Source: a bacterium | GTDB taxonomy: Bacteria > UBA10199 > 2-02-FULL-44-16 > DYJF01 | Direction of reading: 5' to 3' | NCBI GenBank assembly: GCA_041739675.1 | Contig: JBGSNL010000041.1 | Location: 54-64,053, forward strand | DNA length: 64,000 nt | In this document: one piece after another, positions 3,639 to 60,187 of the stretch | Layout: each line of letters opens with the position of its first letter | Position numbering within the stretch: position 1 is the first letter of the stretch | Translations under genes and position numbers: made by a program | Notes under the pieces: model-generated | The model's input: only the letters and a program-made list of their open reading frames with translations | Databases searched by the model: none | Told to the model about the DNA's origin: nothing

Positions 3639-4118
3639 ATGAGGAAAAAAGGTAAAAACTGGGTGTCGATGGGCGACGCTTTGAAAAGCGCCGTGAAGCG
3701 CATCGGAATCTCAAAAAAGATGCGCCGCTTCGAAGTCTGGAACATCTGGGAGAAGATCGCCGGGCCGGCAATAGCGGCCCACGCAAAGCCTCAGCGCTGG
3801 CAGGGAACGACACTCGTCGTCGGCGTCCCCCATGCATCGTGGATGCAGGAGCTCTCCTATTTAAAACCGGAAATTTTGAACAACATGCGCGAGGCAGTTC
3901 CCGGCATCGACATTTCTGACATACGATTCGAGATCGGAGCCGGCGCGGAAGATCAACCTCCACCGATCTTATCGGCCAATGATCCCGAAGTCCCGCTCTC
4001 GCCCGACGAGAAGGAGTTCATCGAACAGGCTGCGAAGGAGATCAAGAATGACGACGCCCGCGCCGCCCTGTGCCGCCTCATGACCCGCGACTTTAAGCAG
4101 AAAAAAAGAACGCGATGA
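3639..4118 (+). CDS. DUF721 (DciA-like) domain protein
   Basis: Carries the W..WxxIxGxxIAxH...LxVxVxxxxWxQEL motif. The start is uncertain (3639 or 3669). Confidence 0.6.
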   Translation: MRKKGKNWVSMGDALKSAVKRIGISKKMRRFEVWNIWEKIAGPAIAAHAKPQRWQGTTLVVGVPHASWMQELSYLKPEILNNMREAVPGIDISDIRFEIGAGAEDQPPPILSANDPEVPLSPDEKEFIEQAAKEIKNDDARAALCRLMTRDFKQKKRTR

Positions 4119-4126
4119 GTTTCAAC

Positions 4127-4217
4127 TGCATGTGGCAAGGGGTTTGCCTTGCGTGTGGCCTTGGCCCTTCGTCTTTAGGGCATGTCCTCACGCAAGGCAA
4201 ACCCCTTGCCACATGCA
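4127..4217. repeat. 29-bp perfect inverted repeat hairpin (arms 4127-4155 and 4189-4217, 33-nt spacer); member of a repeat family also present at 40054-40274
   Basis: tgcatgtggcaaggggtttgccttgcgtg ... cacgcaaggcaaaccccttgccacatgca. There is no T-run after it. Confidence 0.8.
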
Positions 4218-4278
4218 CAGAGATACGTATTAACATTCATAATAGTCCGATGGATCATCCGCTGCCATCATCATCGTG

Positions 4279-4499
4279 CGAAAAAAACTTGTTGTCGTAC
4301 GGGCGCGCGCGTCTGGGGATACGCCGTGCGGGGGTGTTTTCGAGCGGCGTCGAGGACGCTGGATACCATAGCCATAAAAAGCCCAGCGCCCGCAGGCGCA
4401 GGCGGCGAGCCGGCGTATGAGGCGAGGCCGCCGTTAGCGAGAAAATTCCCCCGCACGACGTCTCCCCAGACATTGCAGCCCCGAAAGACAACAAGTTTT
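4279..4499. ncRNA. candidate structured RNA or nested inverted-repeat element (16-bp terminal inverted repeat plus a 20-bp inner inverted repeat)
   Basis: aaaaaaacttgttgtc (4279-4294) pairs with gacaacaagttttttt (4484-4499). Inside, ggggatacgccgtgcggggg (4313-4332) pairs with cccccgcacgacgtctcccc (4449-4468). It ends in a T-run. Confidence 0.25.
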
Positions 4500-4503
4500 T
4501 TTA

Positions 4504-5142
4504 TTAGGATCCTTGGAAACAGCGGATGACTTCGTCGGCGGGGATGCGCCCTTCGCGCACTATCCTCATCGTCTCTTCACCGACATCGACGACCGTCGAG
4601 CCGCGGGACGGCTCGCACTCTCCCCCGTCAACGATGCAGGGTATCTTGTCGCCGAAATATTTCTGGATATGCTTGACTGATAGCGAGGGCGGAAACCCCG
4701 AAAGATTGGCGCTCGTCGTCGTGATGGGCTTGCCGAATTTTTTTACGAGGGCTGCGGCCACCGGATGGGACGAAATTCTCATGCCAACGCGGCCCGTGTT
4801 TGTAACGAGCCCTTTTGGAATCTTGTCGCTTGCAGGAAAGAGGATGGTTAGCGCGCCCGGCCAGAATTTGCGCATCAGAGAGAGTGCCTGTTCGGGAACC
4901 TCCTTCACATATTCGCGCAACATCGCGACGTCGGCGACAAGGATGGATATGGGCAGTCCGTAATCGCGGGCCTTCAGGTCGTAAATCTTTTTGACGGCTT
5001 TTCTGGAAAGGACGTCGGCGCCCAGGCCGTAGATCGTCTCGGTCGGATAGGCGATCACCTCGCCCTTTTCTAAAAACTCCACCGCTCGGACGATGTCGCC
5101 CTCGTATGGTTCTTTGGGATCTATGCGAAGCACGACAGACAT
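4504..5142 (-). CDS. tsaC: L-threonylcarbamoyladenylate synthase (YrdC/Sua5 family)
   Basis: 212 aa with the YrdC-domain motifs (..AYPTETIYGLGAD.., ..TTSANLSG..). Confidence 0.8.
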   Translation of the reverse strand: MSVVLRIDPKEPYEGDIVRAVEFLEKGEVIAYPTETIYGLGADVLSRKAVKKIYDLKARDYGLPISILVADVAMLREYVKEVPEQALSLMRKFWPGALTILFPASDKIPKGLVTNTGRVGMRISSHPVAAALVKKFGKPITTTSANLSGFPPSLSVKHIQKYFGDKIPCIVDGGECEPSRGSTVVDVGEETMRIVREGRIPADEVIRCFQGS

Positions 5143-5636
5143 TATTTAAGCCCCTTGTCTTTTTCCTCAACGGCCTTTGCCATCTTCTTGCGCCATTCCC
5201 TTAAAGCATCTGCTATTTTTTCATTGGAGAGAGCAAGTATCTCGGCGGCAAGGATGCCCGCGTTCTTGGCGCCGGCCTTTCCTATCGCGACAGTGGCGAC
5301 CGGAATTCCCGATGGCATCTGTACGGTGGAGAGAAGCGCATCGAGGCCTTGAAGCGATGATCCCTCGAGCGGCACGCCTATGACCGGAAGTATTGTCTGC
5401 GCGGCGACTGCACCGGCCAGATGCGCCGCGTATCCGGCACCCGCTATGATGACGCGGACCCCGTCCTTCTCGGCGTCCTTGATGAGAGAGACGACTTTTT
5501 GCGGCGTGCGGTGCGCCGACGCTATCGCCATACGCGCCTTCACGCCCACCTGCGCCAGCGCCTTCTTGGCCTCTTCCATAACCGACAGATCGGAATCCGA
5601 ACCCATGACTATTAGAACCTTCGGGGCTTCGGTCAT
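5142..5636 (-). CDS. purE: 5-(carboxyamino)imidazole ribonucleotide mutase
   Basis: 164 aa containing VLIVMGSDSDL and AGAGYAAHLAG..VIGVP motifs. Confidence 0.9.
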   Translation of the reverse strand: MTEAPKVLIVMGSDSDLSVMEEAKKALAQVGVKARMAIASAHRTPQKVVSLIKDAEKDGVRVIIAGAGYAAHLAGAVAAQTILPVIGVPLEGSSLQGLDALLSTVQMPSGIPVATVAIGKAGAKNAGILAAEILALSNEKIADALREWRKKMAKAVEEKDKGLK

Positions 5637-5653
5637 CTCTTTCTCCTTTCAAC

Positions 5654-6922
5654 TCATTTCAATGCGCGGCGCCCAATGTCTTTTCTGTAATGCGCGCCTT
5701 CCCACGATATCTTTTCCGCCGCATCGTATGCATTTTTTATCGCCGACGCAATGTCTGTCCCAAGTGCGGTTACGCCAATCACCCTTCCGCCGTTCGTCAG
5801 ATAATCGCCGTCTCTGAAAGTAGTGCCGGCATGGAACACTGTTACGTCCGGTTGCGATTCGGCATCTGCAAGGCCTCGGATGGGTTTTCCCTTTTCATAA
5901 TCTCCGGGATATCCCCCCGACGCCATGACAACGCAGACGGAAGGACGTTTGTCCCACTCGGGTTTCACCTTACCCAGTGTTCCGTCGATCGCGGCTTCGA
6001 TCAAATCTACAAGGTCCGTTTTCAGGCGCATCATTATAGGCTGCGTCTCCGGATCGCCGAAGCGGCAGTTGAACTCAAGCACATTGAAGCGGCCGTCTTT
6101 TATCATGAGGCCGGCATAAAGCACACCGGCGAAAGCTCTGCCCTCTGCCGCCATACCGCGCACGGCGGGTTTCATGACCTCGCTCATAACACGGTCGAAA
6201 ATATCCTGGGTCACAACGTGCGCGGGCGAATATGCCCCCATGCCGCCAGTGTTGGGGCCGCGGTCGTCGTCGAAGACCCGTTTGTGATCCTGCGACGTTG
6301 CAAGCGGAATCACGTTTTCCCCGTCGGATATGGCAATGAACGACGCCTCCTCACCCTCCAGAAATTCCTCGATCACGACTTTTTCTCCGGCGTCGCCGAA
6401 CGTGCGGTCCACCATGATGTCTTCGAGCGCTTCCGAGGCTTCAGATATGTTTTTGCAGATGATAACACCCTTGCCGGCCGCCAACCCGTCCACCTTGATG
6501 ACAATGGGCATTTGCTGTTTTAAAAGATATGTTCCCGCTTCTTTGACGTCGGTGAATGTCGCGGATTTGGCCGTGGGAATATTGTAGCGCTGGCAAAACT
6601 CCTTTGCAAAGACCTTGGAGCCTTCAAGTACGGCCGCTTCCTTTGTGGGGCCGAAAATCTTGAGCCCGCCCCGGCGAAAGATATCGACGATCCCCATCGT
6701 GAGGGGAACTTCAGGGCCCACGATCGTAAGATCGATCGCCTCTTTTTTTGCAAAATTCAGGAGGCCGTCGATATCTTCCGCCTTGACCTGAACGCATGTC
6801 GCATCTTTCGCAATGCCGGCATTTCCCGGCGCACAAAAGATCTGTTTCACGCGGGGGGATTTGGCGAGTTTCCAGACCAATGCGTGTTCACGTCCGCCGC
6901 TGCCGACGACGAGGATCTTCAT
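5654..6922 (-). CDS. purD: phosphoribosylamine--glycine ligase
   Basis: MKILVVGSGGREHALVWKL.. with an ATP-grasp domain. The start is taken at the second ATG, which is preceded by GGGAGG. Confidence 0.9.
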   Translation of the reverse strand: MKILVVGSGGREHALVWKLAKSPRVKQIFCAPGNAGIAKDATCVQVKAEDIDGLLNFAKKEAIDLTIVGPEVPLTMGIVDIFRRGGLKIFGPTKEAAVLEGSKVFAKEFCQRYNIPTAKSATFTDVKEAGTYLLKQQMPIVIKVDGLAAGKGVIICKNISEASEALEDIMVDRTFGDAGEKVVIEEFLEGEEASFIAISDGENVIPLATSQDHKRVFDDDRGPNTGGMGAYSPAHVVTQDIFDRVMSEVMKPAVRGMAAEGRAFAGVLYAGLMIKDGRFNVLEFNCRFGDPETQPIMMRLKTDLVDLIEAAIDGTLGKVKPEWDKRPSVCVVMASGGYPGDYEKGKPIRGLADAESQPDVTVFHAGTTFRDGDYLTNGGRVIGVTALGTDIASAIKNAYDAAEKISWEGAHYRKDIGRRALK

Positions 6923-8263: not shown

Positions 8264-11200
8264 TTAGTGCGCACTTTCCTGGATTGATTCAACCGTGCCG
8301 TCATGGGAAATGACGGCGACTACGGTTAGAGCGGCGCCGCCCGTATCCACAACTTCAACGATGAGTTTGACGGGCCAGACGCCCAGTGCCTGCGCCGCCT
8401 CCCCTTTCGCCTGAAACTCGATTCCTTTTTGGTCCACCTTTTCTATCCAGTGATCCAGAGAACCGCCGTGCCTGGCAACTATGTGCGCCGTGATATTCAT
8501 CGCGTCGCCGGCGGGATCCGCGAAACTGAATTTCGCCCGTCCGCGACCATCTTCAAACTTGATGTCGCTTATCGTCCCCTGTGGCGGCTCGTTCTCGTTC
8601 CAGTAGAAAAATCCCATCGCGCCTATTTTTGAAGCACCCTGATTGATATCAAAAGCCGCAAAGAGATCGGGACCGCCAAAACCTTTTCCGTGAAAAAAAG
8701 TCACCGCATGCGGGTTAACAAAAGACAGGGGAGCGCTTGGCAGAACATCGTCAAGGGTAGATTGAGGTTCCACAAGTTTTGCCATCTGCCCCGCTTTTCC
8801 CAATTGCGGATTTTCCGTTCCGTGTGTGAGCTCGAATATGGAGCCGTCGTTGGATACGAAAAGATCCGCATCGGTTCCGTATCCTTTCAGAATGGCCAGC
8901 GGTATTTTCATCTCCGCGGCGATGCTCCGCGTGCAGCCCCAGCCCCCGCCGTTTTCCCGGCAAAACGCAAGTGAGGTCTTTTCATCGATCGTTGCGACAA
9001 CTCCGAAACCTTTTTTGCTCAAGGCAAACACGTCCGCGGAATCGATGGGAGCGGCTGCCTCCCAAAGCGGAATGAACAGATACTCGCTCACGCCCTCGGT
9101 CGCCGTTATGATATCCACGCCGAAACCGTATCTCGCCTTTTTGCCGGCGACGTTTGCGAGCGTGCAGACGACACCGCCGGCAATAGTATTTTTTTGGTCG
9201 CGCGCAGGCGCTATCGACGCAACTCTCTCCACCTTGCACGACTCGTTTGTCTCTCCCGCCGTGAGAGACCACGGCCGGCTATCGCCGGAGAGAAAGATGT
9301 CCGCGTTCAAATTACAACGGCCTTTGCCGGCCATGGAAAGCTGTGCTGAAATTTTGGGAAAGCGGTAATATCCCGCAGGCGATGACGCGAACATGTCCTC
9401 GCCGGACGTTACGGTGAGATTTTCAAGTTTGTCTCTTCTTTCAATCTGACAATGGCCGAACGCGATCTGCCCCTTTTCGAAGATCTTGCGCACGGGTATT
9501 GCGGCTATCCCCGCTGAATCGGAGTTGGCGCCCGAGACCAGAAGCCACGAATATTTGTGATCGCCCGGCGTGACCGAAGAGCTGTAAACCTCGGCCCACG
9601 GCAAAATCACGGCACGCGTTTTTTTGAATTCAAACAATCTTTCCAGTTTGGAGGCACCCTCTGTTGAGACTACGGCGATTCCTCCCCTGTCGCAATAATT
9701 GGGAATCAGGTCCGCGTCGTCGTCGGCGGCGTCCGAAGGATTAGCGGCGGCACAGCTCACCACGTTTGAGCCGGCAGGACACTGGAACGTTCCGGGGATG
9801 ATACAGGTTCCAACAGTGACCGGGCACGCCTGGCCCAGTTTTGCGACGTCGTCGACGACACCGTTGCAGTCGTCGTCCGAACCCATGTTTTCACAGGATT
9901 CGATGGACGGTTGTTTTGGAACGCAGCTCTGACTTTTTCCGCCGGCGCAATTTGCTATCGTGACCTCGCAGGCGCCGATGCCGCAGACGGCCTCGCCCAG
10001 ATCCTCGTCGACCTCGCCGTCGCAATCGTCGTCAAGATTGTTGCAAGTCTCTTCTTTTGCAAAGACGGTCTCGACGCACGCAAGATCGCCCTCCGGCATG
10101 CAGCGGTACTCGCCCTTTGCGCAAATTCCCGAAAGGGAAGAGAGGCTGCACGGCGTGCCCGCTACCGCCGCCAGGACATCGCAACTGCCGCATTCATTTT
10201 TGAGGCCGCCGCCGATCGGTTCGTGCGTGCAGCCGATGATAGTATCACATTCGTCCGTGGTGCATGAATTTCCGTCGTTGCAGGCGAGAACCGCCCCTCC
10301 CTTGCAGGAGCCTTCGAGACACAGGTCCGCGGCCGTGCACGCATTGCCGTCATCACAACTCGTCCCTTCGGGAACGGCATCGTGCGAGCAGACCCCCGAT
10401 TTGCAAAAATCTTTCGTGCAGGAATTTCCGTCGTCGGTGCATCTTGTGTTTTCCGAAAGATCGAACCGCGGGCTGCAGATCAAGGCCCCCACTCTATCGG
10501 GATCGCATTGCCAGACACCGGCGCCGCATACATCCGCTCCGGAAACGCGGCATCTGTCGCCTACTTTGGCCGGCAGATCGCCGCAGCCGCCGCAGACGTT
10601 TTTGACGCCTTCGTCTATCCCGCCGTCGCAGTCATTGTCGAGATTGTCGCACTTCTCGGGTTTCGGATCCATCCTCGGCGCCGAACAGACGACCGCGCCC
10701 TTCTTCGCATCGCAGACCGTCGTCCCTTTGCGGAGACACTCCCCCGTCTGCCCGTTGTCGCAGAGCTCCGCCAAACCCGCCGCGTCGTCGACTATTCCGT
10801 TGCAGTCGTCGTCTACACGGTTGCCGCAGATCTCCTGTTTGCCCGCGCCCGGAACCGCGTTGCATTTCAGAGACAGCTTATCCTCCGAACAGACAAAGAC
10901 GCCGGCCCGCTCGCAAAATCCCACGCCATTCTTGCAGGGCTTTGCCAGATTTTCAAAACCTTCGTCCACCCTGCCGTCACAGTCATTGTCTATATTTTCG
11001 CCGCAGAGCTCGGCCACGGGCTTTAGAGGAACGCATTTGTTCGCCTTACCGGAAAGGCAGGCCGGAACCGTCTGTCTGCACGCGCCTATTCCGCATGTCG
11101 TGTCGCCAAGACCGTTATCGATGACACCGTCGCAATCGTTGTCGCTCCCGTCGCAGATCTCCGCTTTTGACGCGCCGGCGACCGCGTCGCAGATAACTCC

Positions 11201-11713
11201 CGACTGATCCGGCGAGCAGCGCCTTTTTCCTTTCCCGACACACTGGCCGCGTCCGACAAAACAGGCGGAACCGATATCGAAACCGTCGTCCTCAATTCCA
11301 TTGCAATCGCTGTCTATGCCGTCGCACTTTTCAACCGCATCGGGATGAATGGCAGCATTCTTGTCGTCGCAATCCCCGCCGCAGGTCGTGTATCCGTCCT
11401 TGTCCTTGTCGAAACCCTCGTCTTTTTCGCCGTCGCAGTCGTCGTCCTCACCGTTGCAGAGTTCCACACGTTCGCCCGGCTTTATCATAACCTCGCAGAC
11501 CACCTGCCCGGAGGTGCAGTTCGTGAGGCCCCGCCCGCACGCACCTTTCAAACCGGTGTCGCAAGGTTTCACGCAGGAAACACATTTACCCAGCTTGGCA
11601 TCCCACAGAAAACCCGGCAGACACGTATCTTTAGACTGTGAATGGAGATCCGCAGCGGAGAGAAAAAATCCGGCGATCACAAAAAAAATAAGAGAGGTTC
11701 GTCTGATAGACAT
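8264..11713 (-). CDS. large secreted cysteine-rich repeat protein (CxxDDDCDGxxDEG putative metal-binding repeats) with an uncharacterised ~400-aa Cys-poor C-terminal domain
   Basis: 1149 aa with a signal peptide MSIRRTSLIFFVIAGFFLSAADLHS. It has at least 9 copies of C..(D/N)DDCDG..DEG modules, followed by a Cys-poor C-terminal region. Confidence 0.7.
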   Translation of the reverse strand: MSIRRTSLIFFVIAGFFLSAADLHSQSKDTCLPGFLWDAKLGKCVSCVKPCDTGLKGACGRGLTNCTSGQVVCEVMIKPGERVELCNGEDDDCDGEKDEGFDKDKDGYTTCGGDCDDKNAAIHPDAVEKCDGIDSDCNGIEDDGFDIGSACFVGRGQCVGKGKRRCSPDQSGVICDAVAGASKAEICDGSDNDCDGVIDNGLGDTTCGIGACRQTVPACLSGKANKCVPLKPVAELCGENIDNDCDGRVDEGFENLAKPCKNGVGFCERAGVFVCSEDKLSLKCNAVPGAGKQEICGNRVDDDCNGIVDDAAGLAELCDNGQTGECLRKGTTVCDAKKGAVVCSAPRMDPKPEKCDNLDNDCDGGIDEGVKNVCGGCGDLPAKVGDRCRVSGADVCGAGVWQCDPDRVGALICSPRFDLSENTRCTDDGNSCTKDFCKSGVCSHDAVPEGTSCDDGNACTAADLCLEGSCKGGAVLACNDGNSCTTDECDTIIGCTHEPIGGGLKNECGSCDVLAAVAGTPCSLSSLSGICAKGEYRCMPEGDLACVETVFAKEETCNNLDDDCDGEVDEDLGEAVCGIGACEVTIANCAGGKSQSCVPKQPSIESCENMGSDDDCNGVVDDVAKLGQACPVTVGTCIIPGTFQCPAGSNVVSCAAANPSDAADDDADLIPNYCDRGGIAVVSTEGASKLERLFEFKKTRAVILPWAEVYSSSVTPGDHKYSWLLVSGANSDSAGIAAIPVRKIFEKGQIAFGHCQIERRDKLENLTVTSGEDMFASSPAGYYRFPKISAQLSMAGKGRCNLNADIFLSGDSRPWSLTAGETNESCKVERVASIAPARDQKNTIAGGVVCTLANVAGKKARYGFGVDIITATEGVSEYLFIPLWEAAAPIDSADVFALSKKGFGVVATIDEKTSLAFCRENGGGWGCTRSIAAEMKIPLAILKGYGTDADLFVSNDGSIFELTHGTENPQLGKAGQMAKLVEPQSTLDDVLPSAPLSFVNPHAVTFFHGKGFGGPDLFAAFDINQGASKIGAMGFFYWNENEPPQGTISDIKFEDGRGRAKFSFADPAGDAMNITAHIVARHGGSLDHWIEKVDQKGIEFQAKGEAAQALGVWPVKLIVEVVDTGGAALTVVAVISHDGTVESIQESAH

Positions 11714-22129: not shown

Positions 22130-22320
22130 GCGCGCCTCCTTATCATGGCAAAAATCTCGCTGGCAAGATTAATGTCACGACAAACTGATTTTCTTCATAG
22201 CAATGAACATGCCAATATCCATTACGTTGCAGCACATTGATATTTAAGGATTTCCGTTTTTGAATAAAAATCAAAATTGCATGAAATTCGTACAGTGTGA
22301 CCGGAAATGCTGCAAGTGCG

Positions 22321-22373
22321 GGGGACACTTCTCGTGTTCACGAGGAGCCCACGCGAAAATGAGAAGTGTCCCC
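22321..22373 (-). terminator. 13-bp inverted-repeat hairpin immediately 3' of the MBL-fold hydrolase gene (terminator-like, no clear T-run)
   Basis: ggggacacttctc ... gagaagtgtcccc, with an inner ctcgtg/cacgag mini-hairpin. Confidence 0.4.
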
Positions 22374-22386
22374 ACCTCTTCAAATA

Positions 22387-24822: not shown

Positions 24823-25059
24823 TTATAAGAGCAGCGATGCATTATTGCAACATTTCCAAAAGTCGGATGCGTGGGGGCTGTGGGGTTTGGGGGCGTCCCG
24901 GAAGCAGCCGCATCCATGGATATGATAACGCGGCTGCTGAGGGACGAGGTGCGCCCCAATCCCCGTAAGGTTGGGGCGACACCGTACCCCGAACCCCACA
25001 CTCCCTACGCATTCGAGTTTTGAATGATTGACTTCATCAATGTTGCTCTGATACATGGA

Positions 25060-25192
25060 CGAGCAGTCGCTAGGGGTGCGGCGCTGAGACCTTGCCGGAA
25101 GGCAAGGAACCCTGGAACCTGATCCGGATAATTCCGGCGTAGGGAAGCGAAAAAGAGATGAACCGCACCGCTCTTGCGTGCGGTTTTTTTAT
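25060..25192 (+). promoter_or_regulatory. TPP (THI-box) riboswitch with intrinsic terminator expression platform
   Basis: ctaggggtgcggcgctgagaccttgcc..gaaccctggaacctgatccggataattccggcgtagggaagcg matches the THI-element consensus. It is followed by an accgcac/gtgcggt hairpin plus a T7 run (25162-25190), 12 nt before thiS. Confidence 0.85.
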
Positions 25193-39867: not shown

Positions 39868-40053
39868 CTTTGACCTACTCCAAAGAAAACACCAATTGAA
39901 TCAGCCGCGAACGCTGTGTTTCAACTAGCTGATATTATTCGGAAATCACCACCGCTTCGAAAGAGAGCCGGACTATATATGAGAGGGCTTGGATATTCAA
40001 GGGGTATTTTAGGGACAAAAGGTCTCCATGTATCTGCGTCAGAGCATTCTGTT

Positions 40054-40274
40054 CATGTGGCATTGGGCTTCCCTTGCGTGAGGACATGCCCGAAAGACGA
40101 GCCGCCAATCGCCATGCTGGCTGGTATCTCATCGCCGGCTCGCCAATTCACAATACGGAGATGATGCCACTTCTGGATGGGCGCCCGGAAGCTTGGCGAT
40201 TAACCGCCAGCATGAGCGTTGGCGGCGAAGGCGAAGGGCCTAGTCCTCATGCAAGGGAAGCCCCATGACACATG
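40054..40274. mobile_element. MITE-like element with 32-bp terminal inverted repeats (3 mismatches) related to the 4127-4217 hairpin, and nested internal inverted repeats
   Basis: Terminal inverted repeats catgtggcattgggcttcccttgcgtgaggac (40054-40085) and gtcctcatgcaagggaagccccatgacacatgg (40243-40274). An inner inverted repeat pairs ccgccaatcgccatgctggc with gccagcatgagcgttggcgg. It shares cgtcttt.gggcatgtcctcacgcaagg with 4170-4217. Confidence 0.5.
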
Positions 40275-40328
40275 GATAAATAGCGCTTGAATATTGGGCG
40301 GATTTCAATAGAATACCGCGAACCGAAT

Positions 40329-51702: not shown

Positions 51703-51803
51703 CCCCAAAACGCCTGCCATGTCCGAATGTTCGCCCGCCCTGGCCCATCGCTAAATGGCTAAAATTGGAGAATTGTTCAGCCATTGCTACGTTAGCGGTG
51801 GTT
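51703..51803. repeat. palindromic intergenic repeat, copy A (family with 53382-53403 and 54320-54400)
   Basis: ccccaaaacgcc...cgctaaatggctaaaattggagaattgttcagccattgctacgttagcggtggtt. An imperfect palindrome; it ends 13 nt before the catalase stop. Confidence 0.75.
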
Positions 51804-53270: not shown

Positions 53271-53381
53271 TGGGGTACCTCCTTTGAAAGCGATTGAAGC
53301 AGATTATCGGTCATGTTTACTCCTGTACGCACTCGATTGCAAGCGGAGGGAAAGTGGCATAAAGACAAGTGATGACGATGA

Positions 53382-53403
53382 TTCAGCCATTGCTCCGTTA
53401 CCC
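53382..53403. repeat. partial copy B of the palindromic repeat (20/20 identity with copy C half-site)
   Basis: ttcagccattgctccgttac; upstream of both catalase and the DJ-1 gene. Confidence 0.5.
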
Positions 53404-54319: not shown

Positions 54320-54400
54320 CCCCAAAACGCCCGCCGTGCCCCCACCGCTAAATGGCTAACATTAGAGAATTATTCAGCCATTGCTCCGTTACGGGTGGTT
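54320..54400. repeat. palindromic intergenic repeat, copy C
   Basis: ccccaaaacgcccgccgtgcccccaccgctaaatggctaacattagagaattattcagccattgctccgttacgggtggtt. Confidence 0.75.
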
Positions 54401-54484: not shown

Positions 54485-54558
54485 TTGAAACGCCTATTCG
54501 CTGCAAAGTGACATTCAATAATTTCAACTACTTATCTATATGGGGACTGTCCCCTTTA
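54485..54558. repeat. 74-bp REP-like direct repeat R1 ending in the palindrome ggggactgtcccc
   Basis: 71/74 identical to R2 (54813-54886). Confidence 0.85.
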
Positions 54559-54839
54559 AAGGGACCTGTCCCCGTGCTCCTCACTGGGCCGCGTGTGGCA
54601 GATACATTGAACTGAATCCCATCAGAGCAAACATCTGTAAACGGCCGGAAAAGTTTCCGTGGAGCAGCTATCATTATTATGCATCAGGCAAAGAAGATCC
54701 TTTGTTGCAACCGATCAAAGGAATGGCCGGCTGTGAAAAATGGGTGAAAGGCGTGGGAGCGCCTGATTATCGTAGTTTTATTCTGGAGGGGCTAAAAATG
54801 GACCAAAATGCCTTGAAACGCCTATTCTCTGCAAAGTGA
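54540..54839 (+). pseudogene. truncated IS200/RAYT-like (REP-associated tyrosine transposase) gene: C-terminal fragment only
   Basis: ..RAPHWAACGRYIELNPIRANICKRPEKFPWSSYHYY.. matches the Y1-transposase C-terminal region. The N-terminal HUH half is absent, and REP-like palindromes flank the fragment. Confidence 0.55.
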
Positions 54840-54886
54840 CATTCAATGATTTCAACTACTTATCTATACGGGGACTGTCCCCTTTA
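54813..54886. repeat. 74-bp REP-like direct repeat R2
   Basis: Lies 6 nt 3' of the stop of the minus-strand membrane-protein gene. Confidence 0.85.
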
Positions 54887-56017: not shown

Positions 56018-56136
56018 GCCGATTGGCGAGGGACGATTACGACTATCGATTAACGATTAGCGATTTGACGATTATCGGTAATCATTAATCAGTAATCGAC
56101 AATCGTTAGTCGTAATCGATTATCGGTTAATCGGCT
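56018..56136. repeat. CGATTA/TAATCG-rich imperfect palindromic satellite, copy 1 (3' of the four-helix-bundle gene)
   Basis: gccgatt...aatcggc termini. The left half is CGATT-rich and the right half AATCG-rich. It shares the 3' block aatcgttagtcgtaatcgattatcggttaatcggct with copies 2 and 3. Confidence 0.8.
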
Positions 56137-56143
56137 TTAGAAG

Positions 56144-56476
56144 CTACGGCAGCAACCTAATTTCGCTATAGCTATGCAACACCGCTTCCTTGAATTCCGC
56201 TATTTCCAGTGGTTTGAAGAGGGAGAAAGAAGAGCAGAGATCAAGACAGGCGGAGACTTCCGCTAGTGAGCCAAGGGAAATCTGGAAGAAGCGCTTGCGC
56301 TCGGGAGTGCTGCGTTTGGCATTACCTTCAGCCAGATTCAGCACCGCCGACGTGAGTGCGCGCCTGAGCTGATCGGCCAGATTGCCATATCCCCGCGGCC
56401 AGCGGATCATCAGCCGCGCAATGCGTTCAGTAATCCCGACTAGGCGGTTGTAGCAATTGAGCTTTTCGTGGTTCAT
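56144..56476 (-). CDS. four-helix-bundle protein (TIGR02436-like)
   Basis: 110 aa (..ADQLRRALTSAVLNLAEGNAKRS..SLGSLAE..), typical of the family. Confidence 0.6.
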   Translation of the reverse strand: MNHEKLNCYNRLVGITERIARLMIRWPRGYGNLADQLRRALTSAVLNLAEGNAKRSTPERKRFFQISLGSLAEVSACLDLCSSFSLFKPLEIAEFKEAVLHSYSEIRLLP

Positions 56477-56594
56477 TTTTGCCCTCCTTTGTTTTGGTTG
56501 CCGTTTTCCGTCCTCTCACCCAAGGGAGGAGGACGAAAACGGCGACCAAACATGTGGAGGGCAACAGTGGCCACGAAAAGCGAAATTGCCGACA

Positions 56595-56712
56595 AGCCGA
56601 TTCGCGATGAACGATTACGACTATCGATGAACGATTGACGATTTGACGATCGATAATCGATGATCGGTAATCGCTAATCGTTAGTCGTAATCGATTATCG
56701 ATCAATCGGCTT
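56595..56712. repeat. CGATTA/TAATCG-rich palindromic satellite, copy 2 (3' of the ORF6N gene, overlapping its last codons)
   Basis: gccgattcgcgatgaacgattacgactatcgat...cgttagtcgtaatcgattatcgatcaatcggct. Confidence 0.8.
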
Positions 56713-57247
56713 TTCGCTCGCTTTTGTCCGCTACCGCAAACCCAATCTCCCTTTTCTTCGTTTCCGGCGGAATCATCATTTGCCTGATCGCATCGAATAG
56801 CGAGCAGATCGCTTTATCGTGGGTCGACAGTCTTTGCTCCAATTCGATAAGCTTTTGGGCCAGTTCCTTATGGGTTGCGAGCAATTCGCGGAGTTTGACA
56901 AAGGCGCGGACGACAAAAACGCTGGCTTCCACAGCACGCTCACTATTCAGGACATTCGCCGCCATTATGGCACCATGTTCGGTGAAGGCATAGGGTAACC
57001 ATGCGGAATACTTGATCTTTCTGAGGTGGTCACAATTTGTGACCACCTCGCCACGTTCACTCTCCGTCAGTTGAAACATAAAATCAGGGGGGAAACGGGC
57101 TATATTACGTCGAACAGCCTGATTCAGAGCCTTCGTTGTAACCCCATAGAGAGCAGCAAGGTCCGCATCGACGATAACCTTTTGTCCCCGAATCAGCAAA
57201 ATGCAGCTTTCGGCTCTTTCAATGGGAATGAGAGATCTTTCTTCCAT
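56702..57247 (-). CDS. ORF6N (KilA-N-like) domain protein
   Basis: ..IRGQKVIVDADLAALYGVTTKALNQAVRRNIARFPPDFMFQLT.. is a hallmark ORF6N N-terminus. Confidence 0.7.
   Translation of the reverse strand: MEERSLIPIERAESCILLIRGQKVIVDADLAALYGVTTKALNQAVRRNIARFPPDFMFQLTESERGEVVTNCDHLRKIKYSAWLPYAFTEHGAIMAANVLNSERAVEASVFVVRAFVKLRELLATHKELAQKLIELEQRLSTHDKAICSLFDAIRQMMIPPETKKREIGFAVADKSERKAD
57025..57049. promoter_or_regulatory. perfect 25-bp palindrome aggtggtcacaATTtgtgaccacct inside the ORF6N coding region
   Basis: 11-bp arms with a 3-nt spacer. A second, 7-8-bp-arm copy lies at 57278-57300. Confidence 0.5.
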
Positions 57248-57277
57248 AAGAACTCCGATCTAAATCGAGTTTATGAA

Positions 57278-57300
57278 CCGGTCACAATTTGTGACCACCT
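57278..57300. promoter_or_regulatory. palindrome ccggtcacaATTtgtgaccacct about 31 nt upstream of the ORF6N start codon: candidate operator
   Basis: Same core as 57025-57049. Located in the AT-rich promoter region. Confidence 0.45.
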
Positions 57301-57420
57301 TGACAATAGCAAGCGCTATGCCAATTTGCGGAATGTATAATTTATTGATTATTGGTGAGAATTTTTTGGAGTGGGTTTTAGGTAGTGCACGATTTTCGTG
57401 CAAGCTGCATGAAAACGCTG

Positions 57421-57486
57421 CAATCGATAATCGTCAAATCGTTAATCATTAATCGTTAGTCGTAATCGATTATCGGTTAATCGGCT
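57421..57486. repeat. CGATTA/TAATCG-rich satellite, copy 3 (short), ending 2 nt from the polA stop codon
   Basis: caatcgataatcgtcaaatcgttaatcattaatcgttagtcgtaatcgattatcggttaatcggct. Confidence 0.8.
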
Positions 57487-57487
57487 C

Positions 57488-60187
57488 TTAATGCGCTTCG
57501 GCCCAATTTGCGCCGATCCCGACATCGACGATGAGAGGAACATCGAGGGATACAACATTTTCCATCTTTGCTTTGACATATTCTCCAAGTTCTTTCGCCG
57601 CCTTTTCCGGAACTTCAAACAAAAGCTCATCGTGCACCTGCATTATCATCCTTGCATCCGGGAATTTCTTTGGCAGTTCATTATGTATCTCTACCATCGC
57701 CTTCTTTATGATGTCTGCGGCAGTTCCCTGGAATACCGCGTTGAAGGCCATCCGCTCCGTCATCTGCTTTACCATCGCATTCTGGCTCAGGATGTCTGGT
57801 ACATATCGCCGCCTTCCGAAAAGCGTTTCGATGAAACCCTTTTTTCGCGCTTTCTCCAGAATTTGATCGCGATATTTCGCCACCGCCGGATATCGTTCGA
57901 AATAGGAGTCGATATATTTTGCCGCCACCCCGACTTCGATCTTTAGCTGCTTTGAAAGTCCGAATGCGGTCTGCCCGTAGATCGTGGCGAAGTTTACAGT
58001 TTTTCCGACTGCTCGCTGTTCGTCGGTTACGTTTTCAGGTTTTACCCCAAAAATTCCCGCCGCCGTGATCCGGTGAACATCGTCTCCTCGTTTGAAGGCC
58101 TCAAGTAACGCTTCGTCGCGCGACAGGTGGGCCAGAACCCTAAGCTCGATCTGCGAATAATCGCCTGAGATCAGAACATTTCCCTTTTCCGCTATAAAGG
58201 CCTCGCGGATCCTTCCTCCCTCTTTCGAACGGACGGGAATATTTTGCAAATTGGGATCTGAAGACGAGAGCCTGCCGGTGGACGCCACAGCCTGGTTCAA
58301 AGAGGTATGGATCCTTCCTGTTTTTTTGTCCACAATCTCCCTGAGCGCATCGATGAAAGTGGATTTGAGTTTTGACAGCGAACGATACTCAAGGATCAAG
58401 GCAGGCAAGTGATGCTTGAGCGAGAGATCCTCTAAAATCCCCACATCGGTGGAATAGCCGGTCTTCGTGCGTCTGGGAGTTCCGAGCTTCAATTTGTCGA
58501 AGAGAATGACTCCAAGCTGGCGCGGAGAGTTTATATTGAACTCCTCTTTTGCCTCGCTGTGGATCCTTTTTTCAAGCTCGCCCAGTTTTTCCTCATACTC
58601 TCTGGAGAGTAACGCGAGTTTTTTCGTGTCGATTTTCATCCCCGCCTGCTCCATATCGAGAAGGACGACAAGGAGCGGCATCTCAAGATTGAAAAAAAGA
58701 TCGTCCAGTTTTTCTTCTTTGAGTTTCGGGACGAAGATATCGGCGAGCCTCAGCGCTACGTCGGCGTCTTCGCATGAATAATCGCGCGCGACGTCTATCG
58801 CCACCTCCGAAAAATTGAGCTGCTTCTTGCCCTTGCCCACGACTTCTTCGTACCTGATCGTCTTGTGGTCCAGATGCTGCTGCGCCAGCGCGTCCAGGCC
58901 GTGGCTGCCCGACGGGTTCAGAAGATAGGAGGCGATCATTGTGTCGCAGTAGAGGCCCGCCACATCGACGTCGTATCTTTTCAAAACCGCAAGATCGTAT
59001 TTCAGATTCTGCCCGATTTTTTTGATCTTTGGATCCGCAAGGATCGGCTCCAGTTCCTCTATGACCTCTGTGAGCGGCAGCTGGCCCTTGGCTAGTTTCG
59101 TCTGCGTCCCGAAAAGGTCGGGCGCTGCCTGCCCCGTGACGTGGCCCACAGGGATATAGAAGGCGATGCCCGGGGCCGTGGCCACCGAGATTCCCACGAT
59201 TTCGGCTACCATCACGTCTAGGGAGGTCGTTTCAAGATCGAAGGACACTTTTCCCGCGGATCTTATTTCGGCCGTCAGTTTTTTCAGCTCATCAAGGCTC
59301 TGGATGAGAAGATATTTCTCGCGCCCGAGGGTTTCCTTGGGCGATAGCTCGGAGAGGAGCCTGGTGAACTCGAACTCGCGGAAAAGATCGTGGAGTTTTT
59401 TGTCGTTTGGGGCCGTGACCGCAAAATCTTCAAAATTGTATTTGACCGGCACATCCGTCTTGATGGTCGCGAGCTCCCTTGAAAGCCGCGCCTTATCCAC
59501 GTCCTTTTCGATCCTTTCGGCCAACCCCTTTGAGAGCTCTTTTGCGTGTTCGATGACGCCTTCAACGGAGCCGTACTGGGCGATGAGCTTGGAGGCGGTG
59601 ACCATCCCGATGCCGGAAACGCCCGGGATATTGTCCGAGGCATCGCCGGCGAGACCCAGGACATCTATCACCTGCCTTGGTTTCACTCCGAACTGCGCCT
59701 CGACTTCTTTTTCGCCGATGCGGCGGTCCTTCATGGAGTCGAACATCTTCACGGAATCGCCCACGAGCTGCATGAGATCTTTGTCGCCCGAGACGATCAC
59801 AACTTCAAGTTCGTCCGAGGCGAGTTTTTTTGCCAGCGTGCCGATGATGTCGTCGGCCTCGAAGCCCGGCAACTCAAGCACGAAAATGCTCAGCGCTTCG
59901 AGGATCGGTTTGAAATACGGGAACTGCTGGACGAGATCGTCAGGCGGCGCGGTGCGGTTGGCCTTGTAGTCTTCGTACATCTCGTCTCTGAAAGTGGGCT
60001 CCGCGGTGTCGAAGACAACCGCGAGATGGTCCGGCTTTTCGTCGCGCATGAGTTTTAAGATCATCTGCGTGAAGCCGTAGAGCGCGTTTGTGGGAAAGCC
60101 CTTGGAATTGGACAGCGAACGGATCGCGTAATAGGCGCGAAAGACGTAATTGGCCCCGTCGATAAGATAGAGGGTCTTCTTGGCCAT
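57488..60187 (-). CDS. polA: DNA polymerase I
   Basis: 5'-nuclease, 3'-5' exonuclease and polymerase domains. Start at MAKKTLYLIDG. Confidence 0.9.
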   Translation of the reverse strand: MAKKTLYLIDGANYVFRAYYAIRSLSNSKGFPTNALYGFTQMILKLMRDEKPDHLAVVFDTAEPTFRDEMYEDYKANRTAPPDDLVQQFPYFKPILEALSIFVLELPGFEADDIIGTLAKKLASDELEVVIVSGDKDLMQLVGDSVKMFDSMKDRRIGEKEVEAQFGVKPRQVIDVLGLAGDASDNIPGVSGIGMVTASKLIAQYGSVEGVIEHAKELSKGLAERIEKDVDKARLSRELATIKTDVPVKYNFEDFAVTAPNDKKLHDLFREFEFTRLLSELSPKETLGREKYLLIQSLDELKKLTAEIRSAGKVSFDLETTSLDVMVAEIVGISVATAPGIAFYIPVGHVTGQAAPDLFGTQTKLAKGQLPLTEVIEELEPILADPKIKKIGQNLKYDLAVLKRYDVDVAGLYCDTMIASYLLNPSGSHGLDALAQQHLDHKTIRYEEVVGKGKKQLNFSEVAIDVARDYSCEDADVALRLADIFVPKLKEEKLDDLFFNLEMPLLVVLLDMEQAGMKIDTKKLALLSREYEEKLGELEKRIHSEAKEEFNINSPRQLGVILFDKLKLGTPRRTKTGYSTDVGILEDLSLKHHLPALILEYRSLSKLKSTFIDALREIVDKKTGRIHTSLNQAVASTGRLSSSDPNLQNIPVRSKEGGRIREAFIAEKGNVLISGDYSQIELRVLAHLSRDEALLEAFKRGDDVHRITAAGIFGVKPENVTDEQRAVGKTVNFATIYGQTAFGLSKQLKIEVGVAAKYIDSYFERYPAVAKYRDQILEKARKKGFIETLFGRRRYVPDILSQNAMVKQMTERMAFNAVFQGTAADIIKKAMVEIHNELPKKFPDARMIMQVHDELLFEVPEKAAKELGEYVKAKMENVVSLDVPLIVDVGIGANWAEAH

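Follow-up and report, generated by a model that had tools for sequence, protein, structure and literature searches.

A perfect inverted repeat of 29 bp stands directly behind the dciA gene of the window (the whole stretch of 64,000 nucleotides that was analysed). Is it a local regulatory hairpin of the gene that it follows, or one copy of a dispersed family, either MITE-like or of structured RNA, as a preliminary description of this DNA had proposed? We compared this hairpin (element A) with a second element of the same window (element B) and with the corresponding loci of relatives. On balance, A is probably a truncated member of a small non-coding foldback family of ~220-225 bp, MITE/REPIN-like and non-autonomous, which is mobile now or was formerly. 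Together with B and a third member found in a relative (E11), it represents an ordinary kind of small mobile DNA, and the family itself is undescribed.

The relatives that we fetched were 87-92% identical in TsaC and 76-83% in PurB and showed the gene order of the window; their loci are given below by L numbers. The closest named relatives of the source lineage were labelled 'Deltaproteobacteria/Pseudomonadota bacterium'. A Logan contig from SRR28170473 was 100% identical to window positions 4405-6029.

The hairpin downstream of dciA

The features between dciA and the next gene are the following:

3639..4118, + strand: dciA (Pfam DciA, 1.9e-20), with the stop codon 8 nt before A
4127..4217, (-) as polarity relative to B: element A, a 91-bp foldback and putatively core-deleted family member
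4127..4155, no strand: left arm of A, perfect 29-bp inverted repeat, sequence TGCATGTGGCAAGGGGTTTGCCTTGCGTG
4156..4188, no strand: asymmetric tip of A, GCCC-TAAAGACGAA-GGGC, corresponding to the subterminal stem plus purine-rich internal loop of B, joined where the B core is missing
4189..4217, no strand: right arm of A, perfect 29-bp inverted repeat, exact complement of 4127-4155
4275..4503, no strand: second nested palindromic element, unrelated to A, with inverted repeats 4281-4303/4480-4502 (91%) and 4311-4341/4441-4471 (87%)
4504..5142, - strand: tsaC/yciO-family gene, convergent with dciA (Pfam Sua5_yciO_yrdC, 1.6e-58)

The perfect inverted repeat was confirmed, with 29 of the 29 nt complementary between 4127-4155 and 4189-4217. 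It extends imperfectly to arms of 40 nt (4127-4166 / 4178-4217, 90%) around an 11-nt tip. The 27-nt core of the arms occurred at those two positions only, with 0 occurrences expected (100 shuffles). When folded as RNA, A reached -76.1 kcal/mol (z = -11.1), and as DNA -45.5 kcal/mol (z = -10.8); none of the 200 shuffles equalled it. A is not a symmetric palindrome: the inner 11 nt of each arm differ, and they are polarity-specific in the same way as the two ends of B.

We also agree with the preliminary description that the hairpin has no T-run. None was present at either end of A on either strand, and the terminator scan displayed no terminator-like site at A or at B. A lacks the T-run that follows the GC-rich stem-loop of an intrinsic terminator, and it is presumably not one. 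The spacer between dciA and the tsaC/yciO-family gene measures 385 bp, and A ends 286 nt before the stop of the latter. Within this spacer, the outer hairpin of the element at 4275-4503 (AAAAAAACTTGTTGTC...GACAACAAGTTTTTTT) has A7 and T7 runs on its two sides and a palindromic element of ~190 bp in its loop. This outer hairpin is probably the real bidirectional terminator of the spacer, and A would be transcribed within the dciA 3′ UTR. In the relatives, the outer hairpin stands alone in L008, and a homologue of the inner element stands alone in L007; the interior of this homologue is conserved, and its outer arms differ.

Between the two palindromic elements, a short spacer (4222-4274; ..ATTCATAATAGTCCGATGGATCATCCGCTGCC..) was conserved in the window, L007, L008, and L072. 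It holds a -10-like box (CATAAT / TACAAT / CGCAAT), then AGTCCGATGG, and then the terminator hairpin, and it may give a small transcript antisense to the 3′ end of tsaC. An ATG-initiated peptide in this spacer was not conserved.

Collinearity of A with a full-length element

The second element lies upstream of purB, in the following setting:

39972..40000, - strand: promoter-like site of purB, left of B (TTGAAT-17-TATAGT), kept in relatives
40052..40276, + strand: element B, full-length foldback with ends TTCATGTGG...CACATGGA
40052..40085, + strand: outer left arm of B, 31/36 complementary to the right arm; varies among members (56% identical to the E11 left arm)
40101..40234, + strand: core of B, missing from A, with the inner helix GCCAATCGCCATGCTGGC / GCCAGCATGAGCGTTGGC, the apical AATTCA..ATACGG and CTTnTGGATGGGC, and the loop strand AGGCGAAGG
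40243..40276, + strand: outer right arm of B, pairs with 40052-40085
40287..40314, + strand: promoter-like site of a downstream secreted hypothetical gene, ~10 nt right of B (TTGAAT-16-TAGAAT), kept in relatives

According to the preliminary description, the loop and right arm of A recur as the terminal inverted repeats of an element at 40054-40274, which is the CATG..CATG span within B. The relation is real, since the 53 nt of 4169-4221 are 88.7% identical to 40100-40048 (E = 2e-11), and identity at the opposite end of B is 81-84%. It goes beyond the mere reuse of an arm, because A, in reverse orientation, follows B from end to end with only 40101-40234 left out. The right arm of A resembles the left end of B and the left arm of A its right end; accordingly, the reverse complement of A is collinear with the first 51 nt of B (44/52 identical) and with its last 42 nt (30/42). 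At the junction, A joins GACGA (B 40096-40100) to AGGGCC (B 40235-40240), so that A equals B without the 134 nt in between. Divergence between A and B is greater in the terminal 29 nt than in the subterminal 29 nt.

The missing 134 nt are bordered on each side by a CGA triplet, and the two triplets mirror each other in their position within the arms. The instability of palindromes is well established, and on this basis we infer that the CGA-flanked loss of the core is the signature of replication slippage across the base of a hairpin. A would derive from a B-like copy in which replication bypassed the hairpin and the core was lost between the symmetric CGA triplets.

The predicted fold of B is a long rod (-136.3 kcal/mol, z = -10.4). 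From its base to its tip, it consists of the outer arms, a purine-rich internal loop (CCCGAAAGACGA / GAAGGCGAAGGG), the inner helix (40101-40126 / 40201-40226), and an asymmetric apical domain of ~75 nt. B lies between two divergent promoter-like sites and outside both mRNAs. No promoter-like or terminator-like site belonging to B or E11 was found.

We also considered A and B as the two ends of a 36-kb composite element and rejected it: the interval consists of syntenic housekeeping genes, which are linked in the relatives too.

A third member and the pattern of conservation

Using blast of B against the loci of the relatives, we found a homologue of its interior at L011:20298-20515 (E11). It lies downstream of addB on a JGI metagenome contig, at a locus that is not orthologous to that of B. 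The interiors of B and E11 were 76% identical (120/157), with perfect blocks that include GCCAGCATGAGCGTTGGCGG (20/20), GCCATGCTGGCTG (13/13), and the loop strand of the B core. The outer arms of the two elements were 56% identical, yet self-complementary within each element (31/36 in B and 28/33 in E11). Thus, the full-length element presents self-complementary and variable outer arms of ~35 nt, a purine-rich loop, an invariant inner helix of 18 bp, and an asymmetric, partly conserved apical domain. Indels of 1-2 nt between B and E11 interrupt every reading frame, and therefore both are non-coding. A 146-aa gene called across E11 in the L011 record is probably spurious. Directly 3′ of E11 (L011:20536-20613), there is a 25-codon ORF for a hydrophobic peptide, MTFSLTLISVLAFLALLALLSTTQL.

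E11 folds at -133.6 kcal/mol (z = -11.7), and the fold z scores of A, B, and E11 all fell between -10 and -12. The consensus fold of B and E11 has 49 pairs, nine of them compensatory, and a conserved U-G wobble. Folding of both strands, a check proposed in the preliminary description, was performed for B and E11; the plus polarity was somewhat more stable (-132.4 vs. -127.7 kcal/mol in B, and -118.4 vs. -106.8 kcal/mol in E11). A covariance model of the core of B and E11 matched A at 4152-4193 on the minus strand (E = 0.0046).

At the fourfold-degenerate sites of tsaC, the two genomes that carry B and E11 were 36% identical (p = 0.64). Compared with the 76% identity of the element interior, this indicates that the interior is constrained or was shared more recently than the split of the genomes.

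Filled, empty, and scarred sites in relatives

The site of A differs among the relatives. The tsaC and dciA genes overlap by 4-6 bp in L074 and L013 and are 9-23 bp apart in L073 and L011, so these are empty A sites. L007 and L008 present at the position of A an unrelated terminator-like hairpin, with an A-run, a 19-bp stem, and a T-run. L072, the closest relative (TsaC 92.5% identical in amino acids and 86% in nucleotides), retains the conserved spacer and the dciA stop. Exactly at the position of A (L072:1341-1355), it contains only the 15-mer TTCATGTGGCATGGA. This 15-mer is B 40052-40063 (TTCATGTGGCAT) followed by B 40274-40276 (GGA), that is, both termini of the element with everything between the CAT triplets gone. 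Judging from its sequence, it reads as a deletion scar or excision footprint of a former element, and an event similar to the one proposed for A, here between the CAT triplets, could have left only these 15 nt.

We considered the 15-mer as a preferred target site and rejected this option. The empty purB sites of the relatives have no such sequence, and the 12-14-nt terminus recurs in B, whose locus is unrelated.

At the site upstream of purB, B was absent in L061 and in L075/L076, and L065 displayed a different, unrelated palindrome. The conserved flanks of this site set the right boundary of B at ~40276-40278. After addB, where E11 is located, the spacer of L007 and L013 measures 92-93 bp and holds no family member. 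The family has been gained and lost at single sites between close relatives, and these filled, empty, and scarred sites in syntenic genomes are operational evidence that it is mobile.

These results support the proposal of a dispersed MITE-like or structured-RNA family instead of a local regulatory hairpin: the homology of A and B spans their full length, E11 is a third member, and the sites are empty or differently occupied in relatives. The preliminary description had stated that the proposal would fail if only the two loci of the window existed and both were ordinary 3′ UTR terminators. Here, E11 exists and B lies between divergent promoters.

The scar also bears on the age of A. Between A and the scar in L072, 13 of the 15 shared terminal nt were identical, which is close to the 86% found for tsaC at the nucleotide level. 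The fourfold-site divergence between the genomes of the window and L072 was 0.38, or ~0.53 substitutions per site after Jukes-Cantor correction. If A and the scar represent one insertion, the neutral expectation is ~15 substitutions in the 58 stem nt along the lineage of the window, and the pairing is disrupted by none. Thus, an A as old as the split from L072 would need active maintenance of its perfect stem, which is not expected of a passive relic. The stem may have been maintained (through selection on an RNA or DNA hairpin or through hairpin-templated correction) or renewed by conversion, or it may reflect independent insertions at a hot spot.

Other intergenic hairpins of the source lineage also show rapid turnover, with several nested palindromic types at the same intergenic sites. 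The palindromic element upstream of purB in L065 (9553-10000) reads ACAGAGGCGCACAGGACACAGAGA.../...TCTCCGTGCCTGTGCGTCTCTGT. In L072, a nested hairpin follows tsaC (1159-1300; TTGCAAAACTCGGAGGC...GCCTCCTCGTTTTGCAA).

Searches for copies, enzymes, and known families

To retrieve further copies, we applied nhmmer and the covariance model to the window and ~185 kb of the relatives (248,880 bases, partly redundant). They displayed only A, B, and E11, plus the one scar. The exact terminus pattern CATGTGNCANNGGGNTTNCCTTGCNTG gave 0 matches in the genome contig collection, and the looser CATGTGNCANNGGGNTTNCCTTGC gave five matches in metagenome contigs, all of them chance matches inside coding sequence. 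The core 18-mer GCCAGCATGAGCGTTGGC had 47 matches in genome contigs and five in viral contigs, with no similarity beyond the 18-mer. There was no blastn match in the PLSDB plasmids. When the longest frame of B was compared to 1.84 billion protein representatives, the four matches were tandem-repeat proteins and represent artefacts.

Among the known RNA families, Rfam at gathering thresholds detected in the window only a TPP riboswitch located elsewhere, and B and E11 gave nothing relevant even at E <= 10. In E-value mode, the sole matches of A were hairpin models of animal miRNAs, with scores no higher than half of the cut-offs, which reflects hairpin shape in general. No transposase was found in the window ORFs tested nor in the ~185 kb of the relatives' loci. 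One candidate was the extra 422-aa gene of L008 (compared to L007); it was rejected as a transposase, being a secreted protein.

Target-site duplications were another check suggested by the preliminary description, and no direct repeat was seen beside A, B, or E11; this result rests on three copies and is still compatible with a duplication of 1-2 bp. The flanks are CTGT and TAAA for B, CTCTG and GTTGA for A (reverse complement), and GTTGC and AGCAA for E11. Both ends of A and B carry CATG, a self-complementary tetranucleotide, and the CAGT...ACTG of E11 is an inverted and not a direct repeat, so these are parts of the inverted repeat.

Comparison with known element types

Bacterial MITEs are short, have terminal inverted repeats around a core, form long RNA stem-loops, and can be co-transcribed with effects on mRNA stability (Delihas, PMC3184786). 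In agreement with the size and coding content of MITEs, A and B measure 91 bp and 225 bp and contain no conserved ORF or transposase. Terminal inverted repeats are present in the three members (29/29 in A, or 40 nt at 90%; 31/36 in B; 28/33 in E11). The family is also dispersed: two members lie within the 64 kb of the window and another at a different locus of a relative, L072 retains a scar, and orthologous sites are empty in further relatives. The closest likeness is to MITEs in which the palindrome spans the entire element (ERIC/IRU, YPAL, Correia/NEMIS, RUP, and Nezha/Chunjie), which are likewise short, non-coding, and intergenic, with terminal inverted repeats around a core. Other features shared with ERIC/IRU-type MITEs are stable predicted RNA stem-loops (~-130 kcal/mol), possible co-transcription, presence/absence differences, and internally deleted variants. 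However, A, B, and E11 differ from them in having no visible target-site duplication, an interior more conserved than the termini, and a low copy number in the available DNA. They also lack similarity in the scanned collections and a known cognate insertion sequence. Since neither a target-site duplication nor a partner transposase was detected, the term MITE applies to the family by analogy only.

REPINs are another relevant comparison. In these elements, the REPs are conserved and the spacer is variable, and central excisions that leave short palindromes have been documented (PMC3337134). Like a REPIN, A is a hairpin of two inverted halves in the range of 89-110 bp and lacks a target duplication. 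The hairpin also persists as part of the sequence drifts, and the central excision of REPINs is analogous to the scar of L072 and to A itself. Unlike in REPINs, the halves are not palindromic REPs, the core is conserved and the ends are variable (76% in the interior and 56% in the outer arms of B and E11), the full length is ~225 bp, and no intact RAYT was seen. When folded alone as DNA, the arms gave z scores of -0.5 and -2.1 (A), +0.5 and +0.3 (B), and +1.2 and +0.7 (E11); single arms form no significant hairpins, and therefore they are not REPs.

A shares with Rho-independent terminators and with REP-type 3′ stabiliser hairpins its location directly after a stop codon, between convergent genes, and a GC-rich stem. 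It differs from both in a stem of 29-40 bp, in the missing U-tract, and in a sequence common to elements outside 3′ UTRs. The absence of target-site duplication and the dependence on a hairpin recall IS200/IS605-derived PATEs and other elements that move as single-stranded DNA. As in PATEs, the conserved imperfect helix (a bulged C plus a wobble) could be a protein recognition site. PATEs have two different subterminal hairpins, whereas A, B, and E11 are one long foldback, with no TnpA/TnpB nearby and no conserved target tetranucleotide demonstrable. Regarding integron attC sites, the left flank TTTCAAC matches RYYYAAC in 6/7 positions, with no GTTRRRY opposite and no cassette array or integrase nearby.

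Alternative explanations and proposed mechanism

The explanation that we favour, a mobile or formerly mobile foldback family, has to be weighed against several observations. There is no target-site duplication at A, B, or E11 and no transposase in the window or the fetched loci, and only three copies and one scar were present in ~250 kb, with no copy in public collections by exact pattern. Conservation is highest in the interior and lowest at the termini, unlike in typical MITEs or REPINs. The nine compensatory pairs, the G-U wobbles, and the steadier fold of the plus polarity would also fit a functional RNA. As a rival reading, the family could be a non-coding structured RNA: a small-RNA gene, or else a mobile module that encodes an RNA. 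The inner helix and apical domain would be functional, nothing but pairing would be required of the outer stem, and A would be a dead derivative that lost its core. An interior kept at 76% while the outer arms diverged to 56% and remained complementary, compensatory changes in 9 of the 49 consensus pairs with a conserved U-G wobble, the more stable plus-polarity fold of both B and E11, and indels that rule out coding are all consistent with it. We consider it unlikely, however, as the elements have no promoter-like or terminator-like sites of their own, B lies between promoters that face outward, no Rfam family matched even at E <= 10, and the elements are absent from the orthologous sites of close relatives and occupy a different locus in each genome. 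Moreover, the covariation is weak evidence, because it comes from only two full-length sequences and palindromic DNA gives the same pattern without any RNA. A terminator or mRNA-stabilising hairpin that evolved locally behind dciA, with an incidental likeness to B, would explain why A starts 8 nt after the stop codon and why L007 and L008 have a genuine terminator-like hairpin there. It is very improbable: 53 nt match B at 88.7% (E = 2e-11), including polarity-specific asymmetric positions, there is no T-run, and the scar of L072 has B-type termini. The homology of A to B and E11 effectively refutes a local origin.

Two further options keep the mobility and change the mechanism. The elements could be REPINs: REP doublets whose movement depends on a RAYT (HUH Y1) transposase. 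The missing target-site duplication is in line with this, as are the 91 bp and hairpin shape of A (similar to an 89-bp REPIN), GT[AG]G-like tetranucleotides at all ends (GTGG in A and B, GTAG in E11), the central-excision scars known in REPINs (PMC3337134), and a weak remnant of a RAYT C-terminus at ~54.6 kb. We regard it as quite unlikely, considering that single arms do not fold significantly, conservation is lowest at the termini, B and E11 have twice the usual size and a conserved core, and the apparent copy number is low. Besides, the RAYT remnant falls far under the cut-off (18.7 vs. 80 bits) and is flanked by a different palindrome, GGGGACTGTCCCC. There is also an outside chance that the family is a new mobile structured element, a rod-like foldback in which the bulged inner helix and the asymmetric apical domain are the functional module. 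This module could be the recognition site of a single-strand-specific recombinase or a mobile small-RNA gene, and selection or hairpin-templated correction may keep the outer stem solely for its pairing. Such an element would explain the inverted conservation, the missing target duplication, and the perfect stem of A, whose insertion seems older than a split with a fourfold-site divergence of 38%.

If A, B, and E11 are members of a non-autonomous foldback family, as we favour, their copies would have been mobilised in trans by an enzyme that is not encoded nearby. Movement would probably pass through a single-stranded hairpin intermediate, as suggested by the lack of a visible target-site duplication and by the complementarity kept despite the change of the arms. 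A follows the dciA stop by 8 nt and precedes the probable terminator, a position in which it would be co-transcribed with the gene. It would then form an RNA duplex of 29-40 bp, which could block 3′ exonucleases or attract RNase III.

In itself, the finding is routine. Small palindromic repeats are common in the intergenic DNA of bacteria, and the annotation changes for two intergenic regions only. However, the full-length element type, the core-deleted hairpin, and the 15-nt scar form a natural series that documents the decay of a long palindrome by hairpin-bypass deletion. In addition, very long terminator-like stems after genes can be relics of mobile DNA. The unusual features are the conserved core with freely co-varying outer arms and the apparent upkeep of a perfect 29-bp stem over substantial divergence.

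Other repeats in the window

Several other repeats were present in the window. The RAYT C-terminus remnant (54560-54812; ..YIELNPIRANICKRPEKFPWSSYHYY..) was detected with NCBIfam NF047646 (E = 0.0012, 18.7 bits vs. a cut-off of 80), and Pfam gave nothing. It is flanked by direct repeats of 74 nt (54485-54558 / 54813-54886), 96% identical, each ending in the palindrome GGGGACTGTCCCC. In the same part of the window, a dispersed repeat (51744-51803, 54341-54400, and 53378-53401; 88% identical) consists of a terminator-like hairpin, CCCACCGCTAAATGGCTAA...CAGCCATTGCTCCGTTACGGGTGG, followed by a T-run and preceded by CCCCAAAACGCC. Its copies lie downstream of DUF4325/ATPase and DJ-1/PfpI genes.

A palindromic element of ~165 bp (24857-25022) has 36-nt arms that are 83% complementary, with 94 nt between them, and is located directly upstream of the TPP riboswitch (25062-25162; Rfam RF00059, 69.3 bits). 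At 22314-22380, an intergenic hairpin presents 32-nt arms, 78% complementary, and a 3-nt loop (AAGTGCGGGGGACACTTCTCG...CGAAAATGAGAAGTGTCCCCAC).

Dense direct and inverted ATCG-rich repeats (CGATTA / TAATCG units, with 44-65-nt copies 72-93% identical) occupy 56018-57488, where the GC content is lower (0.47-0.48). They surround a gene with an ORF6N domain (56702-57247, minus strand) and include a further inverted repeat of 34 nt (57011-57044 / 57280-57313); the region looks like an array of binding sites. Finally, a minus-strand ORF of 1149 aa (8264-11713) contains many copies of a 31-nt CGTCGTCGACGACACCGTTGCAGTCGTCGTC-like repeat. It is annotated in relatives as a MopE-like Cu-binding repeat protein, and represents a coding repeat and not a mobile element.
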